Below are positions 5,514 through 51,673 of a stretch of 64,000 nt of DNA, one piece after another (position 1 is the stretch's first letter; every line of letters begins with the position of its first letter). The translations under genes and the position numbers were made by a program. The DNA is from Clostridia bacterium (lineage in GTDB: Bacteria; Bacillota; Clostridia; Christensenellales; CAG-138), in the NCBI GenBank assembly GCA_030527115.1, contig JAUNBM010000002.1, positions 4,285 to 68,284 on the forward strand. The letters are read 5' to 3'. Under the pieces are notes generated by a model. The model had not been told where the DNA came from and did not search any database. It saw only the letters and a list, made by a program, of their open reading frames with translations.

Positions 5514-6626
5514 ATGATTACTTTACAACAACTGTCAAAAGGGCTTCTTTGCAACAAGACTCAGCTGTACGGGGAGGAGAAACGCAGCCGTTCCTTGAGG
5601 GGCGCGCTGAAAAATCCGCTGGGACAGTACCTTCTGTTCGGGCTAATCCTGGTCGTCTTACAGCTTGTTTCCTCGCTCGGTTCGGAGTTTGGGATAAGGA
5701 TAATCCCGGTCAGCTTTATGACCGCGCTCGGAAGCACGCTGATTTACAGCATGGTTTCAATCGGCTTTTGCCTGCTTCTGGGCTATTCGGGGCTTGCCTC
5801 GCTCGGCACCGCCGGCTTTATCGGCATAGGCTCGTACTGCGCGTTCTTCTGCTTCCAAGAATGGGGACTGCCCTATATCGTCGCAATTATGATGACGCTT
5901 GCCATCTCAATCATCATCGGTGTGTTCGTGGGCTTCATCTCGCTTAGAATAGAGGGCATATATCTTGCGATAATCACGCTCGGGCTTTCGGAAATCCTCC
6001 GCTACGCCCTGCAAACCATACGCGCAACCGTCAACATAGATCTTAGCAACATCAAGCTGTTCGGCGCAACGATAGACAAGGAAGTGGTGTTCTACCTCAT
6101 CGTGGCGGTGCTGTTGATTCTGATTTGGATAACCAACAATCTCATTAAAAGCCCCACGGGCAGGGCCATGCTCGCCATGAAAAACAGCACCTCCGCGGCG
6201 CAGGCCTACGGTATCTCGCTGATGAAGTACCGCCTGCTGGCCTTCGTGCTGTCCACGGTCTACGCCGCGCTTGCGGGAATCATGTACATGATGTACCTTC
6301 GCTCGGTGTCCACCTCGATGTCCACGCTGTTTAGGCTTACGACCTCGCTCAACATCTTGGGTGCGGTTATCATAGGCGGCGCAAAGTCGATATGGGGCGT
6401 GCTTGCGGGCACCTTCATAGTGTACGGGCTGGACTCGATGTTCTTGCAGAGCATACCGCTGTTCAACGATAATCCGACGCTTATCACCCTGTTCACGGGA
6501 ATATTGATAATCCTCGTCGTAATGTTCTACCCCGGGGGCTTGCAACAGCTGTTCACGCTCATAAGGCGCAAGGTAATTGCCCTGGCGGCGAAAAGAAGGG
6601 AGGCAAGGTATGGCAGAGATGTTTAA
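5514..6626 (+). CDS. Branched-chain-amino-acid-type ABC transporter permease (LivM family)
   Basis: Polytopic membrane protein with the LivM-type segment LLLGYSGLASLGTAGFIGIGSY. Sits between the LivH-like and ATPase genes. Confidence 0.85.
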   Translation: MITLQQLSKGLLCNKTQLYGEEKRSRSLRGALKNPLGQYLLFGLILVVLQLVSSLGSEFGIRIIPVSFMTALGSTLIYSMVSIGFCLLLGYSGLASLGTAGFIGIGSYCAFFCFQEWGLPYIVAIMMTLAISIIIGVFVGFISLRIEGIYLAIITLGLSEILRYALQTIRATVNIDLSNIKLFGATIDKEVVFYLIVAVLLILIWITNNLIKSPTGRAMLAMKNSTSAAQAYGISLMKYRLLAFVLSTVYAALAGIMYMMYLRSVSTSMSTLFRLTTSLNILGAVIIGGAKSIWGVLAGTFIVYGLDSMFLQSIPLFNDNPTLITLFTGILIILVVMFYPGGLQQLFTLIRRKVIALAAKRREARYGRDV

Positions 6627-8046
6627 AACGTTCCGTCTCACAAGGCTGGATAAGAAAGTCAGGCGGGTCAAAAACCATGCCAAAAAGCGCGGCATTATGG
6701 AGCGGCACAAGGTCGTTACAGCCGCAAACAGGCAGATAAAACTTGCCAACAAAGAGCTTAAAAAGTCGCTCTTGCAGGCCCTTACCGCCGAGGAAGTCTT
6801 TGATATAAGGATGCAAAAGGCCTTAAAAAAGTATGATTTAAAGGCCAAGTGGGAGTACCGCAGGGTAAACCATGGATTTGCAAAGAAGATATTTGAAGCG
6901 GCGAAGGCAGGCGATACGGAGACGGAACGGAAGCTTTTGGAAAAGAACCGCGCCGAAGTCCTGGCCCTCGATAGCAAGAGGGCAAGGTTTGTCCTTCGAT
7001 GGGAGGAGAAGAAGAGCGCCTTTGTTAAGGCCGGCCGGGCGGACGAAAGCGTTGCCGAAAAGAGACGGTTGCAATTTGACAGGCAGTTAGAGGAGCAGAA
7101 AGCCAAGCTCTCCGAGCTTTATGAGATTAAGAGCGGGCTTGCGGCAAAAAATATCGAGCAGTTCGACGCAAGGACGGCGGACAAGCTGAAAGCGCTCTCC
7201 GATAAGCGTGCCGCGATTTTGGGCAGGGGTCGCACGGAATTGGCGGACGACGTCATTCTCTCCGTAAATAATCTCTGTATGTATTTCGGCGGCCTTCATG
7301 CCGTGGACGAGCTTAGCTTTGACGTCAAAAAGGGCGAGATATTCGGTCTGATAGGCCCCAACGGCGCGGGCAAGACCACGGTGTTCAACTGTATCACGCA
7401 GTTTTACAAGCCGACACGGGGCGAACTGCACTTTAAAAACAAGGAGAACGTCACCGTGAGGCTTACCGACTACTCGGTGCACGACGTCGTGCTGGAGGGC
7501 ATATCGCGTACCTTCCAAAATGTCGAGGTCATAAAAGAGGTTTCGGTTTTGGAGAACCTTTTGATAGCGGCGACGAGGTTTTATACGGCAAGCGTGTTCG
7601 AGCAGGCGCTCCACCTTCCCATCTTAAAGATAGAGGAGGAGCTTATAAAGCAAAAGGCGGAAACCGTTTTAAAGCTTTTGGGGCTTTCGACCTACAAGGA
7701 CTGGTATGCGTTCGGCCTGCCCTACGGCGTGCTTAAAAAGATAGAGATAGCCCGCGCACTGATGACGGAGCCAAAGCTCATCATCTTGGACGAGCCGGCG
7801 GCGGGGCTTAACGACACCGAGACTGCCGAGCTTGCCGAGCTGATTTGCAGGATTCGAAAGGATTTCGAGTGCACCATCCTCTTGGTTGAGCATGATATGT
7901 CGCTGGTAATGTCTGTGTGCGACAGGGTCTGCGCCATATCGTTCGGCAAGAAGCTCGCGCTCGGCACGCCCGACGAGATTCAAGCGGACAAGCAGGTGCA
8001 GGAGGCCTATCTCGGAGTTTCCGAGGAGGAGGGAGAGAGCCGATGA
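6610..8046 (+). CDS. LivG-type ABC ATPase with a ~214-aa Lys/Glu/Arg-rich N-terminal extension
   Basis: The C-terminal 265 aa carry Walker A GPNGAGKTT, the LivG-type insert, Walker B LIILDEPAAG and the H-loop VEHDM. The ORF is open from an ATG at 6610 with a GGGAGG RBS that overlaps the livM end. An in-frame TTG at 7240 would give a canonical-length LivG. Confidence 0.75.
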   Translation: MAEMFKTFRLTRLDKKVRRVKNHAKKRGIMERHKVVTAANRQIKLANKELKKSLLQALTAEEVFDIRMQKALKKYDLKAKWEYRRVNHGFAKKIFEAAKAGDTETERKLLEKNRAEVLALDSKRARFVLRWEEKKSAFVKAGRADESVAEKRRLQFDRQLEEQKAKLSELYEIKSGLAAKNIEQFDARTADKLKALSDKRAAILGRGRTELADDVILSVNNLCMYFGGLHAVDELSFDVKKGEIFGLIGPNGAGKTTVFNCITQFYKPTRGELHFKNKENVTVRLTDYSVHDVVLEGISRTFQNVEVIKEVSVLENLLIAATRFYTASVFEQALHLPILKIEEELIKQKAETVLKLLGLSTYKDWYAFGLPYGVLKKIEIARALMTEPKLIILDEPAAGLNDTETAELAELICRIRKDFECTILLVEHDMSLVMSVCDRVCAISFGKKLALGTPDEIQADKQVQEAYLGVSEEEGESR

Positions 8047-13897: not shown

Positions 13898-14155
13898 GTT
13901 AAAGCCCCTTACCGAGCGATATATTAAGACCAATCCGTAGAGCAATAAGACCGTTCACCTTCGTGGGCGGTCTAAAAAATTACAAACTCCTTCAAATCAC
14001 GTCGAAATATAATAGTATTTATTATTTTGGCACAAGAATGTTACAAGTCATTGTTAAACTTAATTTAAGACAGCAGGATCTAATTTTGAAGGAAAACGGA
14101 ATATTAAGTCGGGTTGATTCGTCAAAAAAGCGAAGTATCGCGGAAAGGGCATCAT

Positions 14156-15616
14156 ATGAAACGTTTATCGACCGTATTGTTGGCATTTTTAATACTTTTC
14201 ACCTTAGCGTGCCAGCCCACGCCGGAGGAGGATATTGTTGTAAACAAGGGCGAGGGTGATATGCGTGACGTCGTGCAGGATGCGCCCGCTGAAAACTCGT
14301 TGGATGGCATGGCCGGCGATACAGCGGCGTCCATGCAGGTCAGCTCTCTCTATGCCCGCCTGAACGCCCCCGAATATTGGACGATGGAGAACACCGATGC
14401 AGGCTTTTTGATAGTCGCAGAGGAGGCGCCTGTAATTCTGCCGCTTGCGGACAAGTTGCCCGTGGCGGAAGCGGAGCTTCGTTCCTTTACGCAGGAGGAC
14501 ATCGACAGGGTCGCAAGCGTTCTGTTCGAGGGCAAGGATGTAAAGTGGCACGAGAACATACGCGTTACAAAGGAGCAACTGATGGAGGACATTCTTTACT
14601 CCCAGGAGCGGTTGACCCTGGCAGAGGAGGGCGGCAGGGAGGAGAGCTACATTCAGCATTGGCGGGACAGGGTTAATGAGTATCAGGAACAATATCTCGC
14701 CGCGCCCTACGAGGCGGATTTGAAGCAGATTGACCTCAGTATCACCACCATACCCAATGAATACCGTGAGGACTGCCAAGGCGTATCCGCAGACGCAACG
14801 ATCGACGGGGACGCGTGGACGTTTTACGCAAGGACGGGTAAGGGGAACTATATTCGAGCGGAAATAAGCACTTACAGCAGTATGTGCCTGGATGAGCCTT
14901 ACAAGGTTCAGTTGTCCAAGGAGGACGCAATAAGACAGGCGAGCGAGCTGGTGGCACAGATAACCGATGAATTAACCGTCTGCCATGCTTCTCCCGTTGC
15001 AACGCCGAAGGAGCAGACCGAAAGGAACTGGGGCTGGCAGGTGATATTCATGCGGGGCATCAACGGTGTGCCCACAGCCTATGCTTCAGAGCAGATAGGC
15101 GGGGACATGGATACAACGGTGAGCGAACCTGTCGGCTATGAGCAACTGACCGTAGTGTTGGACGACAAGGGGCTTTGCTCGTTTTCATGGCACAGACCTA
15201 TGCAAATTACGGGTTTTGTCAGCGCCAATGCCGAACTTCTGTCCTTTGACGAGGTTGCGCGGCGAGCCATAGAGCATATCGCGGCTCGATGGAAATACAA
15301 CGCCGATACGGACAAGGACATACGCATAATGATTACTCGTGTTGAACTGGGACTGTGGCGAATTGCCAACCGCAATGGCGGCTACTATTTCGTTCCCGTG
15401 TGGCACTTCTTCTCCGATGCCGAGCATTCCAAGGAGTATTATGAAAGCAACTACGGCGAAGGGAAATGGGAGGACAGAAAGACCGTTATTATGCGTGAGG
15501 TTGAAGATTCCGACGGCGACATCAGCGGAGGCATGACCGGAGACCCATATGCGTGGGGTTCGATAACCGTCAACGCCATCGACGGGAGCATAATAGATAA
15601 GGACAAAGGCTATTAA
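14156..15616 (+). CDS. Lipoprotein of unknown function (paralogue A)
   Basis: MKRLSTVLLAFLILFTLAC lipobox followed by QPTPEE. Start set at the ATG at 14156 (GGAAAGGG RBS) rather than the track start at 14114. Paralogous to 15638-17107. Confidence 0.65.
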   Translation: MKRLSTVLLAFLILFTLACQPTPEEDIVVNKGEGDMRDVVQDAPAENSLDGMAGDTAASMQVSSLYARLNAPEYWTMENTDAGFLIVAEEAPVILPLADKLPVAEAELRSFTQEDIDRVASVLFEGKDVKWHENIRVTKEQLMEDILYSQERLTLAEEGGREESYIQHWRDRVNEYQEQYLAAPYEADLKQIDLSITTIPNEYREDCQGVSADATIDGDAWTFYARTGKGNYIRAEISTYSSMCLDEPYKVQLSKEDAIRQASELVAQITDELTVCHASPVATPKEQTERNWGWQVIFMRGINGVPTAYASEQIGGDMDTTVSEPVGYEQLTVVLDDKGLCSFSWHRPMQITGFVSANAELLSFDEVARRAIEHIAARWKYNADTDKDIRIMITRVELGLWRIANRNGGYYFVPVWHFFSDAEHSKEYYESNYGEGKWEDRKTVIMREVEDSDGDISGGMTGDPYAWGSITVNAIDGSIIDKDKGY

Positions 15617-15637: not shown

Positions 15638-17107
15638 ATGAAGAAACTTACCCTAATCCTAATTGCCCTGATACTTCTCACCGCGTGCCAGCCCACGCCG
15701 GAGGATGAGATAGTCATCCAGCGTAGCGACGCGGATGGCGAAACGGGCGGCGAAATTGTGCCGCCGCCGGAGTTTCCGGCTACCATTCAGGGGACGGCGA
15801 GCTTTGAAGCGGACGGCGTGCCTACGGAGCTTGTGGTCGATGCCGAGGTAAAAACTTACGATTCTGCGGGCTATTTCCGCTGTCCCATTGAGATAGTTCC
15901 CTATTCGAACGAGGTTAAAAAGAGCTTTGTAAGCGCCTGTGTTTCGGACGCCGAGGTGTTTTCGGACAGTCCCAGCAGGGGTGTGACGAGGGATATGCTA
16001 AACCGTCAGCTGGAGTTTTATGTGTCGCTTCTCGACGAAAGCAATCCGCGGTGGGAGTATTTATTTGAAGTTCGAGAAGAAAAAGACCCGGAAGCACTCA
16101 TGGATTACGGCAAGGGGGAAATCGAGCTTTCCATTCAAAGGGTTCAGGAGAGGCTTCTCACCGCTACGGAGCAAATAGAGGGAACGAGGGCGGACTTGGA
16201 TAACCTTTCAAGCCCCGCAGAGCTGTGTGCGGACACGGGGAATATGTACCCCGCCCTAATTTGGCTAACCCCACAGGACAACAACACGGAAACCTATGCC
16301 TTAATGTCGGGCGCTACGGGCGGCAATCCGTCATTCGCTATCAATTCCCAAATAATGGAGCTGTATAACAGCTATGACATTTCAATCGATATTTCCATGG
16401 ACGACGCAAGGGCTGTGGCGGACGAGTTCGTAAGCAAGATCAATGGGGTAAACCTGATTTTTGCAGGCGAGGGAAAGGATTACATCTACGATTTTTCCTA
16501 TCCGTTCAACGAATGGGGAGCTTCGGCAACCTATGTGTTTGTCTATGTTCCGCAGGTGAACGGCGTGCCGCTGAACTATGTCGATATCGAGTATTTAATG
16601 GAACAAACGAGATGGGAGCTGCGGTTTCCCGAAGGCATGGTGAATTCGCCCGTTTATCAAAACTACCTGTATGTCTTTGTAAACGATTACGGGATCAACT
16701 GTGTTTCGTGGCGCCACGCAGCCGAATACAGGATAATTGAGGAATCCAAAACCGCCGTGTCCTTGCTTTCCTTCGACGAGGTTATGGAAATTTTCTATCG
16801 TCATATCGAGTACGGCACAAACTTTTGCAGTACGAATAGCTCCAAGCTTTCAAAATCTTCCCGCCAGACTCTTGAAATCGACCAAATCACCTTAGGTTAT
16901 GCGCTTGTCCGTTCGGGAACGGGGGCAAACGACTTTGAACTCATACCCGTGTGGGACTTCTACGGAAGGATGCACGAGGTCTACGACAATCCGGGTCAGA
17001 TAATGACCGAGGAGGACGGCACCCGTTACGAAACCACGCTCGGCAGAAGCTATCTTACGATAAACGCAATAGACGGCACGATAATCGACCGGGTGCGGGG
17101 CTATTAA
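15638..17107 (+). CDS. Lipoprotein of unknown function (paralogue B)
   Basis: MKKLTLILIALILLTAC lipobox plus QPTPED. It shares with paralogue A the C-terminal blocks IPVWDFYG / VPVWHFF and TINAIDGTIIDRVRGY / TVNAIDGSIIDKDKGY. Confidence 0.65.
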   Translation: MKKLTLILIALILLTACQPTPEDEIVIQRSDADGETGGEIVPPPEFPATIQGTASFEADGVPTELVVDAEVKTYDSAGYFRCPIEIVPYSNEVKKSFVSACVSDAEVFSDSPSRGVTRDMLNRQLEFYVSLLDESNPRWEYLFEVREEKDPEALMDYGKGEIELSIQRVQERLLTATEQIEGTRADLDNLSSPAELCADTGNMYPALIWLTPQDNNTETYALMSGATGGNPSFAINSQIMELYNSYDISIDISMDDARAVADEFVSKINGVNLIFAGEGKDYIYDFSYPFNEWGASATYVFVYVPQVNGVPLNYVDIEYLMEQTRWELRFPEGMVNSPVYQNYLYVFVNDYGINCVSWRHAAEYRIIEESKTAVSLLSFDEVMEIFYRHIEYGTNFCSTNSSKLSKSSRQTLEIDQITLGYALVRSGTGANDFELIPVWDFYGRMHEVYDNPGQIMTEEDGTRYETTLGRSYLTINAIDGTIIDRVRGY

Positions 17108-17358: not shown

Positions 17359-18024
17359 TTATTTTACCGCCAGCAGGTAGCTTTCATCGAGCCGGCGGTA
17401 TAGTTCGTTTTGCGGGACGGAGCCGTCTAGCAGGAGGGTATACCAGCTTCGTTTGTTCATGTGATAACCGGGGAAATACTTTTCTCCGAGAGGAAGCAGG
17501 GACAGCTCCTCCGGGCGAATTCTAAGGTCGATGATTTCCGCCGTCTCGTCGGAATCAATGCCGAGCTTGCGCTTGGAGACGGTAAGCAACGCGGCATACC
17601 ACTTGCCGGTATCCTTCCTGCGAAAGACGGCGTTGGTGGGGAGCTTTTGCCACAAAAACTCCGGCTCGTCCCCATAGGTTCGCCTAACATGGGCTATCAG
17701 CTCCTTGGCGCAGTCCGACTTAAAAACGTCCGGCTCGAAGCAGTCCCCGGCAATCCTTTCAAGGGTCGCTTCAATCTCGGCGCGGATCAGCCCCACCAGC
17801 GCGCCGCTCGCCGTCGGCGCACGGTAGAGGAGATATTCGTCTCCGCCATCCCGGTCGATAACCTTCGTTTCAACCCTGCCGCCGTCCGCAATGCTCACGG
17901 TCAGCAAAAACTGCCCGTTTGCAATCTCGGTATGATAGTGGTAGAAGCCGTCCGCCTTTGAGAAGCCGAAGGACTGAAGCCGCTCATAGTCCGGCTTTTT
18001 TAGCCTGAACAGGTTTTCGTGCAA
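17359..18024 (-). CDS. MmcQ/YjbR-family domain protein
   Basis: The C-terminal KWYAALLTVSKRKLG...IDLRIRPEE...PGYHMNKRSWYTLLLDG resembles the YjbR fold family. Start set at TTG 18022-18024, 8 nt after GGAGG and downstream of a promoter at 18073-18101. The upstream part of the track ORF overlaps that promoter. Confidence 0.6.
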   Translation of the reverse strand: MHENLFRLKKPDYERLQSFGFSKADGFYHYHTEIANGQFLLTVSIADGGRVETKVIDRDGGDEYLLYRAPTASGALVGLIRAEIEATLERIAGDCFEPDVFKSDCAKELIAHVRRTYGDEPEFLWQKLPTNAVFRRKDTGKWYAALLTVSKRKLGIDSDETAEIIDLRIRPEELSLLPLGEKYFPGYHMNKRSWYTLLLDGSVPQNELYRRLDESYLLAVK

Positions 18025-18072
18025 GTCGATTGCCTCCGTTTCCGATAAGTCCCTTAATCCTTTCAGCTCCTT

Positions 18073-18101
18073 AGTATAGCAGAGCGTAGCACGGTTGACA
18101 A
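18073..18101 (-). promoter_or_regulatory. Sigma-A-type promoter (TTGTCA-17-TATACT) for the YjbR-like gene
   Basis: Hexamers read on the minus strand with a 17-nt spacer, located just downstream of two terminators. Confidence 0.5.
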
Positions 18102-18127
18102 CTGAGAACGGGGAAAACCCGCCGGAC

Positions 18128-18162
18128 AAAAAAAGAAGCCGCAAAGTCGAAACGATTGCGGC
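18128..18162 (-). terminator. Intrinsic terminator (second of a tandem pair) ending the radical-SAM/peptide/kinase operon
   Basis: On the minus strand, GCCGCAA-11 nt-TTGCGGC is followed by TTCTTTTTTT. Confidence 0.55.
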
Positions 18163-18221
18163 AGGCGCGTTTAAATGGATGGGCAAAAGAGCGGAAGAGC
18201 TTATAACCGCCATGCCGCGAA

Positions 18222-18246
18222 TTGAAAAGGGCGGCAAAACGCCGCC
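18222..18246 (-). terminator. Intrinsic terminator (first of a tandem pair) after the kinase-PqqD gene
   Basis: On the minus strand, GGCGGC-GTTTT-GCCGCC is followed by CTTTTC, 12 nt after the stop codon. Confidence 0.5.
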
Positions 18247-18257
18247 GATAAGCTTTC

Positions 18258-19406
18258 CTATTCGTCGAGCGCGCCGACGCTTCGCAGGGAATCCAAAAAC
18301 TCCCGAATATCGCTGGCGGCGGTGGCTTCGTCAACGGCGAATTCGTCCAGGACGCATTCTATCAGGGCTCTCTCGGTGGTGGGATGCAGGAGCCGCTCCC
18401 ATAAAAAAGCCCCCACGGTGTTGAGCATGATTGCAACCGGCGCGCCGTCGGCTTTGATTCCTGCCATAACGGCGACATGGTTGTCCAGCAGACGCCTCAT
18501 CACATAGCCTTCTTTAATTCTCATATCCTTTTCTCCTTTATCAAGCAGTTCAATCTCATTTGGACGGGCCAGCATAGCCGCAAGGTATTCGCCCGCGCCC
18601 GGCTCGTTGGAACAATAATAGCGATAGACGGGAACGGTGAGCGCAACCCTTTCAACCGAGTTCAGAACATTGGCGGCGGCGACCCCGTCCCACAGCGGCT
18701 TGGATACCCTCTGCAGGAGCAAAATGAAGGCGCTGTGGAAATCCAGCCGTTGAAGACGGCAGAAGGGATGTTTTCGAATGTCCACGATGGCGCAAAGGGG
18801 CGCGGACTCGTTGACATAAACGTTCTCCTTGCCGCTCCAGGGCGCTCCGTAGGCGGTAAACCCGCCGTTTTCCGGGCGAAGAAGCGGGCGGTCGGCATTC
18901 AGCATCTTAGAATCGGGAACGGACTTTAAAAAGTTCTGCGCCGCCGTACTCTTGCCCGCGCCGGACGGGCCGGTGAAGCAGACAGTCCGTCCGTCATGTA
19001 TAACGGCGGAGGCGTGAATGGATAAAGCCCCATTTTGGGCGCTGATCTCCTCAAAGGCGAGCCGAAAAAGCGTTCGCGCCTGCTCCGTCAACGTACCGTC
19101 GTCGTCCCTTGCCCCGTCCCGAATATAAAGGGTTAACCTGTCCCTTTGCGTGGACAGCCAAAGGGCACATAGAGCATTTTTGGCAAAGCGAAAAATCCGC
19201 CCGTCTATGGCTTTTAAAACCTCGATTTGAGCGGATGCAAAAGCAAGCGTGCCGTCCGGTTCCTGTCCGGAGACGACGCTCATAATCACCGGCGTTTCGC
19301 CGTTCGTTTCGCCGCACTCGAATGGTTCAAGCGCGGCTATCAACGTTGCGGGCAAAAGGTCGGACGCAAAAACGGAGACGGCTGTTGCCGCTATCCTAAG
19401 GAGCAT
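18258..19406 (-). CDS. HprK-like P-loop kinase domain fused in frame to a C-terminal PqqD-family (RiPP recognition element) domain
   Basis: LSIHASAVIHDGRTVCFTGPSGAGKSTAA has the pattern of HPr-kinase-related peptide kinases. The last 88 aa (MRIKEGYVMRRLLDNHVAV...AFLWERL...EFAVDEATAASDIREFLDSLRSVGALDE) look like PqqD. An internal AAGGAG (18533-18538) sits 8 nt before the ATG at 18524. Confidence 0.7.
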   Translation of the reverse strand: MLLRIAATAVSVFASDLLPATLIAALEPFECGETNGETPVIMSVVSGQEPDGTLAFASAQIEVLKAIDGRIFRFAKNALCALWLSTQRDRLTLYIRDGARDDDGTLTEQARTLFRLAFEEISAQNGALSIHASAVIHDGRTVCFTGPSGAGKSTAAQNFLKSVPDSKMLNADRPLLRPENGGFTAYGAPWSGKENVYVNESAPLCAIVDIRKHPFCRLQRLDFHSAFILLLQRVSKPLWDGVAAANVLNSVERVALTVPVYRYYCSNEPGAGEYLAAMLARPNEIELLDKGEKDMRIKEGYVMRRLLDNHVAVMAGIKADGAPVAIMLNTVGAFLWERLLHPTTERALIECVLDEFAVDEATAASDIREFLDSLRSVGALDE

Positions 19407-19422
19407 TGCGCGTTATTCGGCT

Positions 19423-19587
19423 TTAAGTGTTGTCTCCGTACCAGCCTTGTACGCAAGAGGAAACCGGCGTCGCCTCATTATTATAATAGTCAAAGCTACA
19501 TGTTCCGCCGAAACCAGAGGAGGCCACATGCTCCTCAAAGTTCATTCCCATTACGACAGCGTTTGGCTTTTCGTAAGTCTTTTTCAT
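19423..19587 (-). CDS. Candidate RiPP precursor peptide, 54 aa: MKKTYEKPNAVVMGMNFEEHVASSGFGGTCSFDYYNNEATPVSSCVQGWYGDNT
   Basis: I translated this by hand; it is below the 60-aa cutoff of the ORF track. GGAGG lies 8 nt upstream. Its ATG overlaps the radical SAM gene stop (ATGA). It sits between a rSAM/SPASM gene and a PqqD-containing gene. Confidence 0.6.
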   Translation of the reverse strand: MKKTYEKPNAVVMGMNFEEHVASSGFGGTCSFDYYNNEATPVSSCVQGWYGDNT

Positions 19588-20819
19588 TCGTTTATCCTCC
19601 TTGTTTTTTCTCGCATAACCGTATGGAGTATGCGAAGATTTTTATTACACGGCTGTTCGCCGGGCAATCCATTGGTTCCGCCGGATGCGAGCGCATAACG
19701 CGCCGGGCAAAAGCGGCATTTTCCGAAGTAGGCGCAGGCCCGGCATTCCTCGCTGCGCCGGTAGCTCAGAGCGGCGTCGTTGACCTGCCGCCAAGCCGGC
19801 ATAAAACCCTCCTTCAATACGTTGACCGAAGCGAGCGGGAACTGGCCGCAGGGTTGCATATTGCCGAAATATCCTATCGTGAAGGAGCAAAGTCCCGCCA
19901 CGCAGGGCATCCTTGAGCCTGACGCCTCCGGCTCTCCTTGCAAAAGGGGCTCGATGAAATCCTCATCGCAAAGCGAGAAGGTTTCCATGCCGTTCTTCTG
20001 GATCGACCTCTGCCAGAGCCGCGACTGCTCCTCGAAGGAGAGAGCGTAATCGGAGAAGCGCTTTCCCGAGCTGACGACGGGCTCGAACATATCGGAGTCC
20101 AAATTTATCCTGCCAAAGCTCATGCTCTTAGCATAGTCGAGCAGGGCGTCGAAGTCCTCGTAGTTGTAGCGCGACATCGTAAGCTGAATATCGGTAGGCA
20201 CTTTGGCCTCCTTTAAAAGCCTCAAAGCGCGGTCAACCTTGAAAAAGGCGTTTTTTGAGCCGGTAACCCGTTCATAAACCTCCGGACAGCTCCCATAAAC
20301 CGAAAGCCGGACAACATACGGGGGCATTTCGTGAAGTCGCTTGGCGGCTTCCTCGTCGATCAGCGTTCCGTTGGTGAGCAGAAGGATGAACACTCCGCGG
20401 CTCTTTAGATGCTCATATATCCGCCAAAAGTCCGGATGGTAGAAGCACTCGCCGCCGGTCAATCCGGCGTACAGCAGGCCCGCGTCGATTGCTTCGTCCA
20501 TTATGCCTATCCACTCGTCTCCGTTCAAAACCCGCTCGGGGTACTTGCCTTCGGAGGAATGCACATAGCACATCTTGCAATCGAGGGTACAGTGAGGGGT
20601 AAGCTCAAAGGTGCCTTTCAACGGGAGCTTCCGCTTCGTATACTCACGGCGAAGCAGGTTGAAAAGGACGGAACTGCGTTCCTCGGCCTTTGAGGCGGCA
20701 AGCTCCGAAAACAGCGTGGAAGCTCCGCCGTTCTCCGGGGAGATGGACGTGGGCTTCGGTTCGCCGGCGAAATTTGCCGGCTCTGCCTGTGGGGAGTCTT
20801 GAACCACATTTTCTGCCAT
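19584..20819 (-). CDS. Radical SAM/SPASM-domain peptide-modifying enzyme
   Basis: CTLDCKMC (CX3CX2C) is present, together with the C-terminal GNMQPC (Gx4C) and CRACAYFGKCRFC cysteine cluster typical of SPASM auxiliary Fe-S sites. Start set at the ATG at 20817-20819 behind AAGGAGG. Confidence 0.85.
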   Translation of the reverse strand: MAENVVQDSPQAEPANFAGEPKPTSISPENGGASTLFSELAASKAEERSSVLFNLLRREYTKRKLPLKGTFELTPHCTLDCKMCYVHSSEGKYPERVLNGDEWIGIMDEAIDAGLLYAGLTGGECFYHPDFWRIYEHLKSRGVFILLLTNGTLIDEEAAKRLHEMPPYVVRLSVYGSCPEVYERVTGSKNAFFKVDRALRLLKEAKVPTDIQLTMSRYNYEDFDALLDYAKSMSFGRINLDSDMFEPVVSSGKRFSDYALSFEEQSRLWQRSIQKNGMETFSLCDEDFIEPLLQGEPEASGSRMPCVAGLCSFTIGYFGNMQPCGQFPLASVNVLKEGFMPAWRQVNDAALSYRRSEECRACAYFGKCRFCPARYALASGGTNGLPGEQPCNKNLRILHTVMREKTRRINE

Positions 20820-20894
20820 CGTCAATCCTCCTTTCCCGGAGCATAGCCTCGGAGCCATATAACAAAATCGAGTATGGCGAAGCGACAACTCCGC

Positions 20895-21003: not shown

Positions 21004-21549
21004 CTAATCTTGAAATTGCTTTGAAATGCAGAGCGACAAAGTCTTTAAAACCAGCCTTTCCGCCTCGTCGATTCGGGCGGCGGGGTCGCCCGAAACCAGC
21101 CCGACCGCGCCGATAGCCTCGCCGTTAACGATTATCGGGAACATATCCTGGCAGGGGAAGGAATGCTCCTGATCCCGCACCAGCTCGATATTGATCGGCT
21201 GGTTTTGCGTTTTCAACGACTGCTTTGCCAGGATAGCGGCCTGAAACGGCCTTGTCAGCGGCTTATCCGCCAGCGTCCTTTTTAGCTGGCCGGCGCAGGC
21301 GACCATCCTTTCGCGGTCGCAAACGAACGCCGTCATTCCGGTTGCCCCGTTGATCGCCTGAACGATCTCTTGAGCCTGGGTTGACAGCTCGGCGACGGGG
21401 GAGTAGGGCTTCAAAATGATACTGCCCTCGCGGTCGGTAAATATCTCCAGCGGATCGGATTCCCGAATCCGCATGGTTCGTCTAATCTCCTTGGGTATAA
21501 CGATTCGCCCCAGCTCATCAATGCGTCTAACGATTCCGGTTGCTCTCAT
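21004..21549 (-). CDS. spoVT: Stage V sporulation protein T (AbrB-type DNA-binding domain plus GAF-like domain)
   Basis: MRATGIVRRIDELGRIVIPKEIRRTMRIRESDPLEIFTDREGSIILKPYSP is near-identical in pattern to the Bacillus SpoVT N-terminus. The length (181 aa) also fits. Confidence 0.9.
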   Translation of the reverse strand: MRATGIVRRIDELGRIVIPKEIRRTMRIRESDPLEIFTDREGSIILKPYSPVAELSTQAQEIVQAINGATGMTAFVCDRERMVACAGQLKRTLADKPLTRPFQAAILAKQSLKTQNQPINIELVRDQEHSFPCQDMFPIIVNGEAIGAVGLVSGDPAARIDEAERLVLKTLSLCISKQFQD

Positions 21550-36254: not shown

Positions 36255-36586
36255 TTTGAGCAAGCTGGACGATTGCGCCCTAAAAGGGGTGAGGAAAGTC
36301 CGAGCACCACAGGGAAGAGTGCCGGGTAACACCCGGTGGAGGCGACTCCAAGGACAGTGCAACAGAAATAAACCGCCGCATTTGCGGTAAGGATGGAAAG
36401 GCGAGGTAAGAGCTCACCGACGACATGGCGACTTGTCGGGCCTGTAAACCCCACTCGGTGCAAGATTGAATTGAGAGCATTTAATGGCGTCCCGTCAAGC
36501 TCTTTGTAATCGCTCGAGCCGTCGGGCGACCGGCGGCCAAGATAGATAATCGTCCTCGACAGAACTCGGCTTACGGCTTGCTCAAA
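36255..36586 (+). ncRNA. rnpB: RNase P RNA (M1-type ribozyme)
   Basis: Contains the universally conserved P4 strands GAGGAAAGTCCG (36290-36301) and ACAGAACTCGGCTTA (36559-36573). The terminal helix pairs TTGAGCAAGC with GCTTGCTCAA. End coordinates are approximate (+/- 5 nt). Confidence 0.85.
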
Positions 36587-36606
36587 AATTTTTAGATGAG
36601 GATAGT

Positions 36607-51449: not shown

Positions 51450-51455
51450 GCAGCA

Positions 51456-51673
51456 AAGGCGATGAACGGAGGAGTAGGTTTTCAATCCCCGCAAAGAGAG
51501 CGTGGCCGAGGCTGTAAGCCGCGACGGGGACAAGACCGAAGGACGACCGCGAGCCGTATGTCAAAAAAAGGCATACCGTATCAGGCGTTAACGATAATGA
51601 GTGAGGCTTAGGCCTAATCAGGGTGGCACCGCGGATTTTCCGTCCTTGAATGGATTGAAAGTCCGTATTTTTT
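51456..51673 (+). promoter_or_regulatory. T-box riboswitch leader controlling hisS-aspS
   Basis: Present are the AG box (AAAGAGAG, 51493-51500), an F-box-like CGTTA, the T-box sequence AATCAGGGTGGCACCGCGG (51616-51634), and a terminator CGGATTTTC/GAAAGTCCG (51632-51665) followed by a T-run. The T-box 3' end overlaps the terminator 5' arm, as expected for an antiterminator switch. Confidence 0.8.

Follow-up and report, generated by a model that had tools for sequence, protein, structure and literature searches.

Comparative analysis of a two-cysteine precursor peptide gene between a radical SAM/SPASM maturase and a ScmC-PqqD fusion in a Clostridia genome

Unassigned gene clusters for peptides made on the ribosome and modified after translation (RiPPs) that contain a radical S-adenosylmethionine (rSAM) enzyme are common. 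Here, we present a computational analysis of such a locus in a 64,000-nucleotide stretch of a Clostridia genome (contig JAUNBM010000002.1 of assembly GCA_030527115.1, positions 4,285 to 68,284; hereafter the window). It is focused on a 54-codon open reading frame (ORF) of the minus strand (19423-19587), which an initial annotation had read as a precursor-peptide gene. This ORF lies between the genes of an rSAM/SPASM maturase and of a protein that joins a kinase-like ScmC domain to a PqqD-type RiPP recognition element (RRE). The explanation that we prefer on balance, with some reserve, is that of a real precursor handled by an RRE-guided kinase-like protein and cross-linked at its cysteines by the rSAM enzyme.

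In phosphorylated lasso peptide pathways (BsfK/BsfB1, or PadeK of paeninodin), an HPr-kinase-like kinase is found with a B1-type RRE and a precursor bearing a YxxPxL-type leader. BsfK is an HPr-kinase-like enzyme with the motif H148-G163-G166-G168-K169-S170-D186-D187, which phosphorylates its precursor at Ser3 and is strongly accelerated by the RRE BsfB1; lasso leaders carry the YxxPxL motif at positions -17 to -12 (PMC10368454). The pairing of a kinase with a nucleotidyltransferase is also known from phosphorylated and glycosylated lasso peptides (PMC8498205). The SynChlorMet (SCM) cassette, defined in silico in NCBIfam/TIGRFAMs, comprises the HprK-like ScmC, the PqqD-type ScmD, the rSAM/SPASM enzymes ScmE and ScmF and a short peptide, and our literature search found no paper on this cassette or characterising ScmC proteins. 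In sactipeptide and ranthipeptide systems (SkfA/SkfB, subtilosin/AlbA, freyrasin/PapB, SCIFF), an rSAM/SPASM maturase stands beside a short Cys-containing precursor. The three-residue cyclophane peptides (triceptides) are rSAM/SPASM RiPPs that we take to be a further suitable comparison.

Like the lasso pathways, the window locus holds an HPr-kinase-like protein that aligns with BsfK, an RRE structurally closest to TbiB1, a leader of the form Y-x-x-P-x-A and a conserved Ser spaced from the leader Tyr as in BsfA, and some related loci contain a nucleotidyltransferase. However, kinase and RRE here form one polypeptide, an rSAM/SPASM enzyme and a two-Cys core are present, this core lacks the Gly1...Asp/Glu8-9 macrolactam pattern, and the operon, made of the rSAM, precursor and ScmC-PqqD genes only, contains neither a lasso cyclase (asparagine-synthetase-like) nor a B2 protease. 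With the SCM cassette the locus shares its list of parts, and weak matches to TIGR04249, TIGR04250 and TIGR04251 were obtained, but all curated cutoffs of TIGR04248-04251 were missed (ScmC 20.6 vs 125 bits, ScmE 77.2 vs 400, ScmF 60.4 vs 400). At the sequence level the locus is related to the cassette but is not a member of it by those models, from which it also differs by the fusion of ScmC with PqqD, by a single rSAM enzyme instead of two and by its gut Clostridia hosts.

The kinship with sacti- and ranthipeptides lies in SkfB as the nearest solved structure and in StsB, AlbA and SkfB among the weak NCBIfam matches, whereas the window RRE is fused to the kinase-like protein and not to the rSAM enzyme, and only two Cys are present, 9-20 residues apart across the family. 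SCIFF, already set aside by the initial annotation, has six Cys against two in the window peptide, for which neither the SCIFF model nor any other curated precursor model of NCBIfam and Pfam gave a match. As in triceptides, the core of the window family is rich in aromatic-x-Asn/Asp triplets after the first Cys (Y-Y-N, W-H-D, F-F-N), but the triplet is not invariant, the conserved element is the Cys pair, and no XyeB-type family is among the listed rSAM matches. By analogy, the system would most resemble an RRE-assisted lasso-precursor kinase joined to a sacti-/ranthipeptide-type maturase, without the defining lasso genes. Literature searches on SynChlorMet, on ScmC and on HPr kinase together with rSAM, RiPP or PqqD gave no description of it.

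The precursor gene and its peptide family

Translation of positions 19423-19587 on the minus strand gives the 54-residue peptide MKKTYEKPNAVVMGMNFEEHVASSGFGGTCSFDYYNNEATPVSSCVQGWYGDNT and a TAA stop, exactly as the initial annotation had read it. The details given there also stood: the ATG (19587-19585) forms an ATGA with the TGA that ends the upstream rSAM ORF, a GGAGG Shine-Dalgarno sequence lies 8 nt upstream (19600-19596), and Gly-Gly 27-28, Cys30, Cys45 and Thr54 occupy the positions assigned to them. Equivalent GGAG or AAGGA sites precede the orthologous ORFs.

A search for relatives of ScmC yielded 189 matches among 185,579 species genomes, mostly gut or rumen Clostridia metagenome-assembled genomes (MAGs) with some Bacteroidales; 94 ScmC loci were collected in all. 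The homology search beside related rSAM genes that the initial annotation had suggested showed that each related locus whose flanks could be read (L001 in two copies, L002, L004, L007, L008, L088, L091/92 and L093/94) has a homologue of the small ORF adjoining its rSAM and ScmC-PqqD genes, and that these ORFs have Shine-Dalgarno sites of their own. On the contigs of the five full-length ScmC-PqqD orthologues, the order is invariably rSAM, small ORF and ScmC-PqqD, and the same arrangement was found in a goat-caecum Clostridia MAG (L008) and in a Joint Genome Institute (JGI) contig (L088). The order varies in two distant members, being S24 peptidase, ScmC-PqqD, rSAM, peptide and ABC genes in L093/94, and rSAM, peptide, ScmC-PqqD, S24-like and ABC genes in L091/92.

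Within leader codons 1-21, the pairwise identity among orthologues reaches 0.74 at codon positions 1 and 2 and falls to 0.48 at position 3, which argues for purifying selection on the peptide reading frame. A word-indexed search with the single peptide returned only itself, and a first peptide profile search returned 7 relatives. An exhaustive hidden Markov model search of 1.84 billion protein representatives then gave 55 matches at E<=1e-3, of which about 50 are peptides of 38-76 aa sharing the same leader. Owing to its diversity, the profile built on 46 peptides did not lend itself to a scan of DNA patterns, and a narrower scan of JGI metagenomes added one locus. Three very large proteins also matched the peptide profile in 5-6 stretches each (P0049, 3682 aa; P0070, 2372 aa; P0075, 1795 aa; E 4e-6 to 9e-4) and are probably repetitive or low-complexity false positives. 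Synteny, the ORFs' own Shine-Dalgarno sites, codon periodicity and the relatives found by profile together indicate a conserved gene with a probably translated frame, and we are highly confident that the ORF at 19423-19587 truly encodes the precursor of a ribosomal peptide.

The locus shows the usual anatomy of a RiPP precursor, with a short ORF beside modifying enzymes, a conserved leader and a core that is variable except for two Cys, so that the division into an N-terminal leader and a C-terminal core proposed by the initial annotation is borne out. The window peptide has no NCBIfam match (E<=0.01) and no Pfam match, and the related peptide families, scanned against the same two collections, gave none either; this precursor family of about 50 members is absent from both collections and new to the catalogues.

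The predicted leader (residues 1-25; 19513..19587) follows the family consensus M-K-K-x-Y-x-K-P-x-a-x-x-x-x-[MF]-x-F-x-E-H-[IV]-A-A-S-G, as delimited by its invariant and near-invariant columns and by residue counts at each distance from the Tyr. No member departs from Tyr5 and Pro8, Glu19 and His20 are conserved in at least 90% of members, and the second residue after Pro in the Y-x-x-P-x motif is A, I, L or M. In the window peptide, the leader carries Y5-x-x-P8-x-A10, of the lasso YxxPxL type, then F17, E19, H20 and an A-S-S-G box (22-25) that includes the conserved Ser24. Gly-Gly 27-28, which the initial annotation had taken as the leader end, was rejected as the boundary since it is not conserved; the conserved end is EH[IV]-A-A-S-G (residues 19-25), with the junction in the AASG box (22-25), and the exact cleavage position is inferred.

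The predicted core (residues 26-54; 19426..19512) was delimited from the number and spacing of Cys in the family and from positional enrichments. Exactly two core Cys occur in 49 of the 55 members, 9-20 and most often 14 residues apart, making them the only near-invariant core residues and confirming the Cys pair as the defining feature of the core. The Cys-x2-Asp and Cys-x6-Asp spacings pointed out in the window peptide are not family-wide; what recurs, without being invariant, is an aromatic residue at Cys1+4 (31/49) or Cys1+2 (22/49), Asn/Asp at Cys1+6 (21/49), an aromatic residue after Cys2 (46/49), Val/Tyr/Trp at Cys2+5 and Gly at Cys2+6 (17/49). The tail after Cys2 ranges from 4 to 25 residues. 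In the window core, Cys30 and Cys45 are 14 residues apart, with Tyr at Cys30+4 and +5, Asn at +6, and Trp-Tyr-Gly-Asp after Cys45.

Across the ScmC loci, precursors with an MKKxYxKP leader fall into several families. A second, larger one comprises peptides of 80-90 aa with 3-4 Cys (MKKxYxKPEIxFESFxLSTNIAGxC...GICYHVPT...LFNS) and no NCBIfam match, encoded in the order peptide, ScmC, rSAM homologue and PqqD (peptide starts at L024 2417, L025 2542, L045 2929, L050 2470, L067 636, L068 2787, L074 1306, L077 2324 and L079 1786). Short, acidic and Cys-free peptides with the same leader (L014 1147, L026 2666, L051 2532, L080 2822 and L083 326) stand beside ScmC, PqqD, S24 peptidase and ABC exporter genes without an rSAM gene, where ScmC would be the sole modifying enzyme. 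In L001, which holds two cluster copies, the first (1315-2327, 2812-2964) has an rSAM gene split by a frameshift and a precursor, MKNDYQKPDADVIELRFEEHISKGSDAPLPV..., that lacks the Cys pair, while the second rSAM-plus-precursor pair (6674-8013) is intact and keeps it.

Other roles for the region were discarded. The plus-strand ORFs overlapping the gene (19227-19916 and 19249-19698) matched no protein family and were rejected as coding; Rfam finds no structured RNA there; and a horizontal-island origin was rejected, the operon GC (0.52-0.58) lying within the range of the flanking genes.

The ScmC-PqqD fusion and candidate phosphorylation

Downstream of the precursor gene, a 382-aa protein (18258..19406, minus strand) combines an N-terminal beta domain, a P-loop domain of HprK/phosphoenolpyruvate carboxykinase (PEPCK) fold and a C-terminal RRE. 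Its assignment to ScmC was made through orthology: PF27840 (ScmC) is precomputed on the orthologues P0002-P0005 and on L091/L093, and identities between the window protein and its five full-length orthologues (P0002-P0006) range over 39-51%. An AlphaFold2 model built from 18 homologues reached a pLDDT of 90.5 and was compared with the PDB using Foldseek, retrieving ATP-dependent PEPCK (E 1e-7) and HPr kinase/phosphorylase (E 5e-5); this fold search was more informative than the ScmC sequence profile, whose PDB matches were swamped by generic P-loop proteins.

The P-loop GPSGAGKST (residues 146-154; 18945..18971, minus strand) lies between His131 upstream and Asp172 downstream. Across the 18 homologues, His131, G146, S148, G149, A150, G151, K152 and T154 are invariant, and S153 and D172 are conserved in at least 90%. 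When compared by BLASTP with BsfK, whose protein was translated from the sequence printed in PMC10368454, the window protein showed 38% identity over 61 residues of the His/P-loop segment (E 5e-8), aligning seven of the eight BsfK motif residues (H131, G146, G149, G151, K152, S153 and D172, the last corresponding to D187). The ScmC domain is thus plausibly, judging from these residues, an active phosphotransferase with one metal-site residue altered.

The C-terminal module (residues ~295-382; 18261..18524, minus strand) matches Pfam PqqD (E 2.2e-13, residues 325-379) and the NCBIfam lasso_PqqD models (3.4e-6), and Foldseek placed its last ~90 residues closest to the lasso RRE TbiB1 in complex with its leader peptide (5v1v, TMt 0.77, root-mean-square deviation 2.6 Å). 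The model therefore contains a PqqD-type winged-helix RRE fold, for which leader binding is predicted. The initial annotation had named an rSAM enzyme and a kinase as partners of the peptide; both were found, the kinase-like domain proving to be fused to this leader-binding module. In the mechanism that we propose, the RRE would bind the leader through Tyr5-x-x-Pro8-x-Ala10 and would offer the peptide to two partners, the kinase-like domain of the same protein and the rSAM enzyme, the latter having no RRE of its own.

Whether the ScmC domain phosphorylates the precursor, at the expense of a nucleoside triphosphate (NTP), is in our judgement an evenly balanced question from the sequences at hand. 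Should it do so, the best candidate site would be Ser24 and not the C-terminal Thr. Phospho-Ser3 of BsfA stands 19 residues after the leader Tyr (Tyr+19), and in the window family a Ser is found at Tyr+19 in 42 of 54 members, including Ser24 of the window peptide, and at Tyr+20 in 10 more (52/54 together). This equality of spacing is what designates Ser24, an assignment by analogy that we hold as tentative and on the doubtful side.

The radical SAM/SPASM enzyme and the two cysteines

The upstream gene (19584..20819, minus strand) encodes a 411-aa rSAM/SPASM peptide maturase, identified from Pfam Radical_SAM, start-site evidence and invariant Cys. Its credible start is the ATG at 20819, preceded 7 nt upstream by GGAGG, within a mechanically called ORF of 19584-20888. 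The Radical_SAM match (PF04055) has an E value of 1.1e-22, and the CX3CX2C motif (C77/C81/C84) is invariant in six orthologues, as is a complete set of seven SPASM Cys (C306, G319-x4-C324, C359-x2-C362-x5-C368-x2-C371 and C391); the Pfam SPASM model itself gave no score on this protein at E<=0.01. Only about 40 residues, which are conserved, precede the rSAM core, indicating an enzyme without its own RRE.

NCBIfam matches to this enzyme were all far below their curated cutoffs, the best being AhbD (90 vs 500 bits), followed by GeoRSP, MftC, ScmE, StsB, PqqE, AlbA and SkfB, and among solved structures the one closest in sequence is that of the thioether synthase SkfB (E 3.4e-13). Homologues of the window rSAM (E 1e-39 to 1e-141) adjoin both the two-Cys family and the 80-90 aa family with 3-4 Cys; their restriction to loci with Cys-bearing cores is in keeping with Cys cross-links. 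Where ScmC and PqqD are present but that rSAM is not (L014, L026, L051, L080 and L083), the cores are acidic and devoid of Cys, with one exception, L069.

From this comparison of sequences, we lean slightly towards the two Cys as the targets of the rSAM enzyme. The co-variation of rSAM and Cys, the near-invariant Cys pair and the weak kinship to SkfB, StsB and AlbA make Cys-derived thioethers the most likely chemistry, that is, two sulfur-to-carbon cross-links of the sacti-/ranthipeptide type at Cys30 and Cys45; that the links are indeed thioethers remains a possibility just short of even.

At the P0034 locus, the rSAM gene is apparently truncated or frameshifted in two independent assemblies (L091 4351-5004, L092 3846-4571), the precursor, ScmC-PqqD, S24-like and ABC genes being intact.

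Competing readings, accessory genes and wider loci

Taken together, these elements could describe a product that is both cross-linked and phosphorylated, the RRE-fused kinase acting on Ser24 and the rSAM enzyme borrowing the same RRE to install two thioethers, in which case the locus would be one branch of a ScmC superfamily with leader-directed phosphorylation. As a whole, we consider this full combination improbable. The superfamily so conceived would be a wide, uncharacterised one of gut Clostridia and Bacteroidales, combining ScmC, PqqD, S24 peptidase and ABC exporter, to which a nucleotidyltransferase or an rSAM enzyme may be added. We know of no described RiPP that combines phosphorylation by an RRE-fused kinase with rSAM thioethers. 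If the preferred explanation holds, it would give a first functional handle on ScmC/SynChlorMet-type proteins, defined so far only by curated models, and would link them to biochemically proven RRE-assisted lasso-precursor kinases. About 50 sequence clusters from anaerobe-rich samples, animal guts among them, would also be gathered into a new precursor family, recognisable by its two Cys and a Ser at Tyr+19. The rSAM clade could carry known thioether chemistry or something new, and the three window genes, about 2.6 kb in total, are small enough for co-expression with a mass spectrometry readout. Should the P-loop domain be silent and the product no more than an ordinary peptide with two thioethers, the locus would be just another rSAM RiPP.

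Several observations weigh against the preferred explanation itself. The rSAM enzyme falls below every curated family cutoff, so that its chemistry is not readable from homology, and cyclophane-type C-C cross-linking would also agree with the aromatic-x-Asn/Asp motifs that recur after Cys1. In the kinase-like domain, the position of BsfK D186, the first Asp of the DD pair, is Ala in the window protein and Ala/Gly in its clade, and activity may be altered. The Tyr+19 argument is drawn from one characterised enzyme, and the A-A-S-G box likewise obeys the (-3,-1) pattern of signal-peptidase-type enzymes, so that Ser24 may be kept for cleavage and leave with the leader. Neither an S24-like peptidase, a matching ABC exporter nor a nucleotidyltransferase was found within the 64-kb window, and the literature search retrieved no expression, mass-spectrometry or enzymatic results on any family member.

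The alternative that survives best, although we regard it as doubtful, is that ScmC leaves no phosphate on the peptide and either uses NTP as a scaffold or chaperone that handles the leader or is an inactive relic, with the RRE alone serving the rSAM enzyme. The replaced Asp would fit this view, as would HprK-related NCBIfam matches far below cutoff and the lack of a characterised ScmC protein in the literature searched. However, the 18 homologues keep His131, the whole P-loop and Asp172 with little or no change, ScmC is the sole candidate modifier beside RRE, peptidase and exporter in the rSAM-less loci, and the co-occurring nucleotidyltransferase parallels clusters where a phosphate is the attachment point (PMC8498205).

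Less probable, and in our view unlikely, is that the rSAM/SPASM enzyme forms C-C (or C-O, C-N) cross-links on aromatic residues, in the manner of cyclophanes, streptide or PQQ (pyrroloquinoline quinone), leaving the Cys pair as a disulfide or a metal ligand only. The aromatic and Asn/Asp enrichments after Cys1 produce many aromatic-x-Asn/Asp triplets, nearly all members have an aromatic residue after Cys2, and PqqE, MftC and WgkB are among the weak NCBIfam matches. Yet near-invariance is limited to the two Cys, with no invariant aromatic position and, in P0053, no aromatic residue near Cys1; furthermore, the presence of the rSAM tracks that of Cys across the ScmC loci, and its closest solved relative by sequence makes thioethers. 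Cys-directed cross-linking is retained as the preferred chemistry.

Turning to the fate of the product, an S24/SipW-like peptidase is encoded in 48 of the 94 ScmC loci and an ABC exporter in 29, the exporter of the full clusters having no C39 peptidase domain; a LytTR-type two-component system is present in L004 and an NTP_transf_5 nucleotidyltransferase in at least 13 loci. In complete clusters, the S24/SipW-like peptidase would cut the leader near the AASG box and the ABC transporter would export the product. Two other loci (L002 and L008) have, like the window, no dedicated peptidase or exporter and no nucleotidyltransferase, and we infer that in the window the genes for processing and export lie elsewhere or that neither step occurs.

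The latter option joins a third alternative, that the locus is a remnant whose three genes are intact and from which no mature product is made or released for want of the family peptidase and exporter. The accessory genes missing from the window and the fuller clusters of L001, L004, L088 and L091-L094 would favour it, together with the decay seen in the first L001 copy. It is nonetheless quite improbable: the three ORFs are full-length, with good ribosome-binding sites and invariant catalytic residues, other lineages (L002/L003 and L008) show the same reduced set of three genes, and the search for peptidase and exporter covers 64 kb of the genome only.

The remaining alternatives fare far worse. 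A peptide-derived redox cofactor of the PQQ or mycofactocin kind would account for the rSAM/SPASM and PqqD-type layout, for MftC and PqqE among the weak matches and for the absence of an exporter from the window. This is very unlikely, as outside its two Cys the core varies extremely in both sequence and length, unlike cofactor precursors, and the exporters, leader peptidases and two-component system of the relatives argue for a secreted peptide rather than a cofactor. Phosphorylation of the C-terminal Thr54 in the style of paeninodin, suggested by the initial annotation, has a precedent in HPr-kinase homologues of lasso clusters that phosphorylate a C-terminal Ser (PMC8498205), and the window peptide does end in Thr. 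It found no comparative support and was rejected as highly improbable: the position is not conserved, with a C-terminal Thr in 7 and Ser in 3 of the 55 members (10/55 together) against N, A, G, V, D and others elsewhere, behind a tail of very variable length. Lastly, a chance ORF in an untranslated spacer, to which the short length and the lack of a database family might point, is effectively refuted by the synteny and codon periodicity, by the conservation of ribosome-binding sites and by the homologues, about 50 in number.

The genes would form a three-gene operon running from the rSAM/SPASM maturase through the precursor to ScmC-PqqD and closing at a putative terminator-like hairpin, GC-rich and followed by a T-run (18230..18246, minus strand), which lies 12 nt after the ScmC-PqqD stop and was detected by a consensus scan alone. 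Upstream of the rSAM gene, no promoter could be attributed to a particular sigma factor. The flanking genes are spoVT (21004-21549), a YjbR-domain gene, two DUF6034 genes and galE.

In the cultured Bacteroidales strain Porphyromonas somerae DSM 23386 (L035 3590-8006), ScmC, PqqD, S24 peptidase, NTP_transf_5 and ABC exporter genes follow in a row, with no adjacent precursor seen; the same nucleotidyltransferase pairing occurs in L028, in L004 (1-777) and in at least 10 other loci, mirroring phospho-glycosylated lasso clusters. In L016, just downstream of a ScmC, PqqD and S24 peptidase module from which an rSAM gene and a visible precursor are absent, an HPr-like small protein (5662-5892, minus strand) and a spoIVA-like gene (6231-7709, plus strand) were identified by eye, in this locus only.

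The spoVT gene adjoins the cluster in the window, on its upstream side (21004-21549, minus strand), and in L093/L094, where it follows the ABC gene downstream (7077-7616), which could reflect a shared chromosomal neighbourhood or a sporulation link. A general link with sporulation was rejected, as spoVT is adjacent in the window and L093/94 only among the 94 loci.

Elsewhere in the window, 14114-15616 and 15638-17107 (plus strand) encode tandem paralogous DUF6034 proteins with lipoprotein-like N-termini (LxAC). In the mechanically called 292-aa ORF at 17359-18237 (minus strand), the YjbR domain covers residues 188-289 only, and the promoter-like site found at 18101-18073 points to a real YjbR gene that is shorter and transcribed separately from the peptide operon. 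Further downstream on the plus strand, the window contains a class A bacterial RNase P RNA (36257-36588, 286 bits) and a T-box leader (51453-51650, 99 bits).

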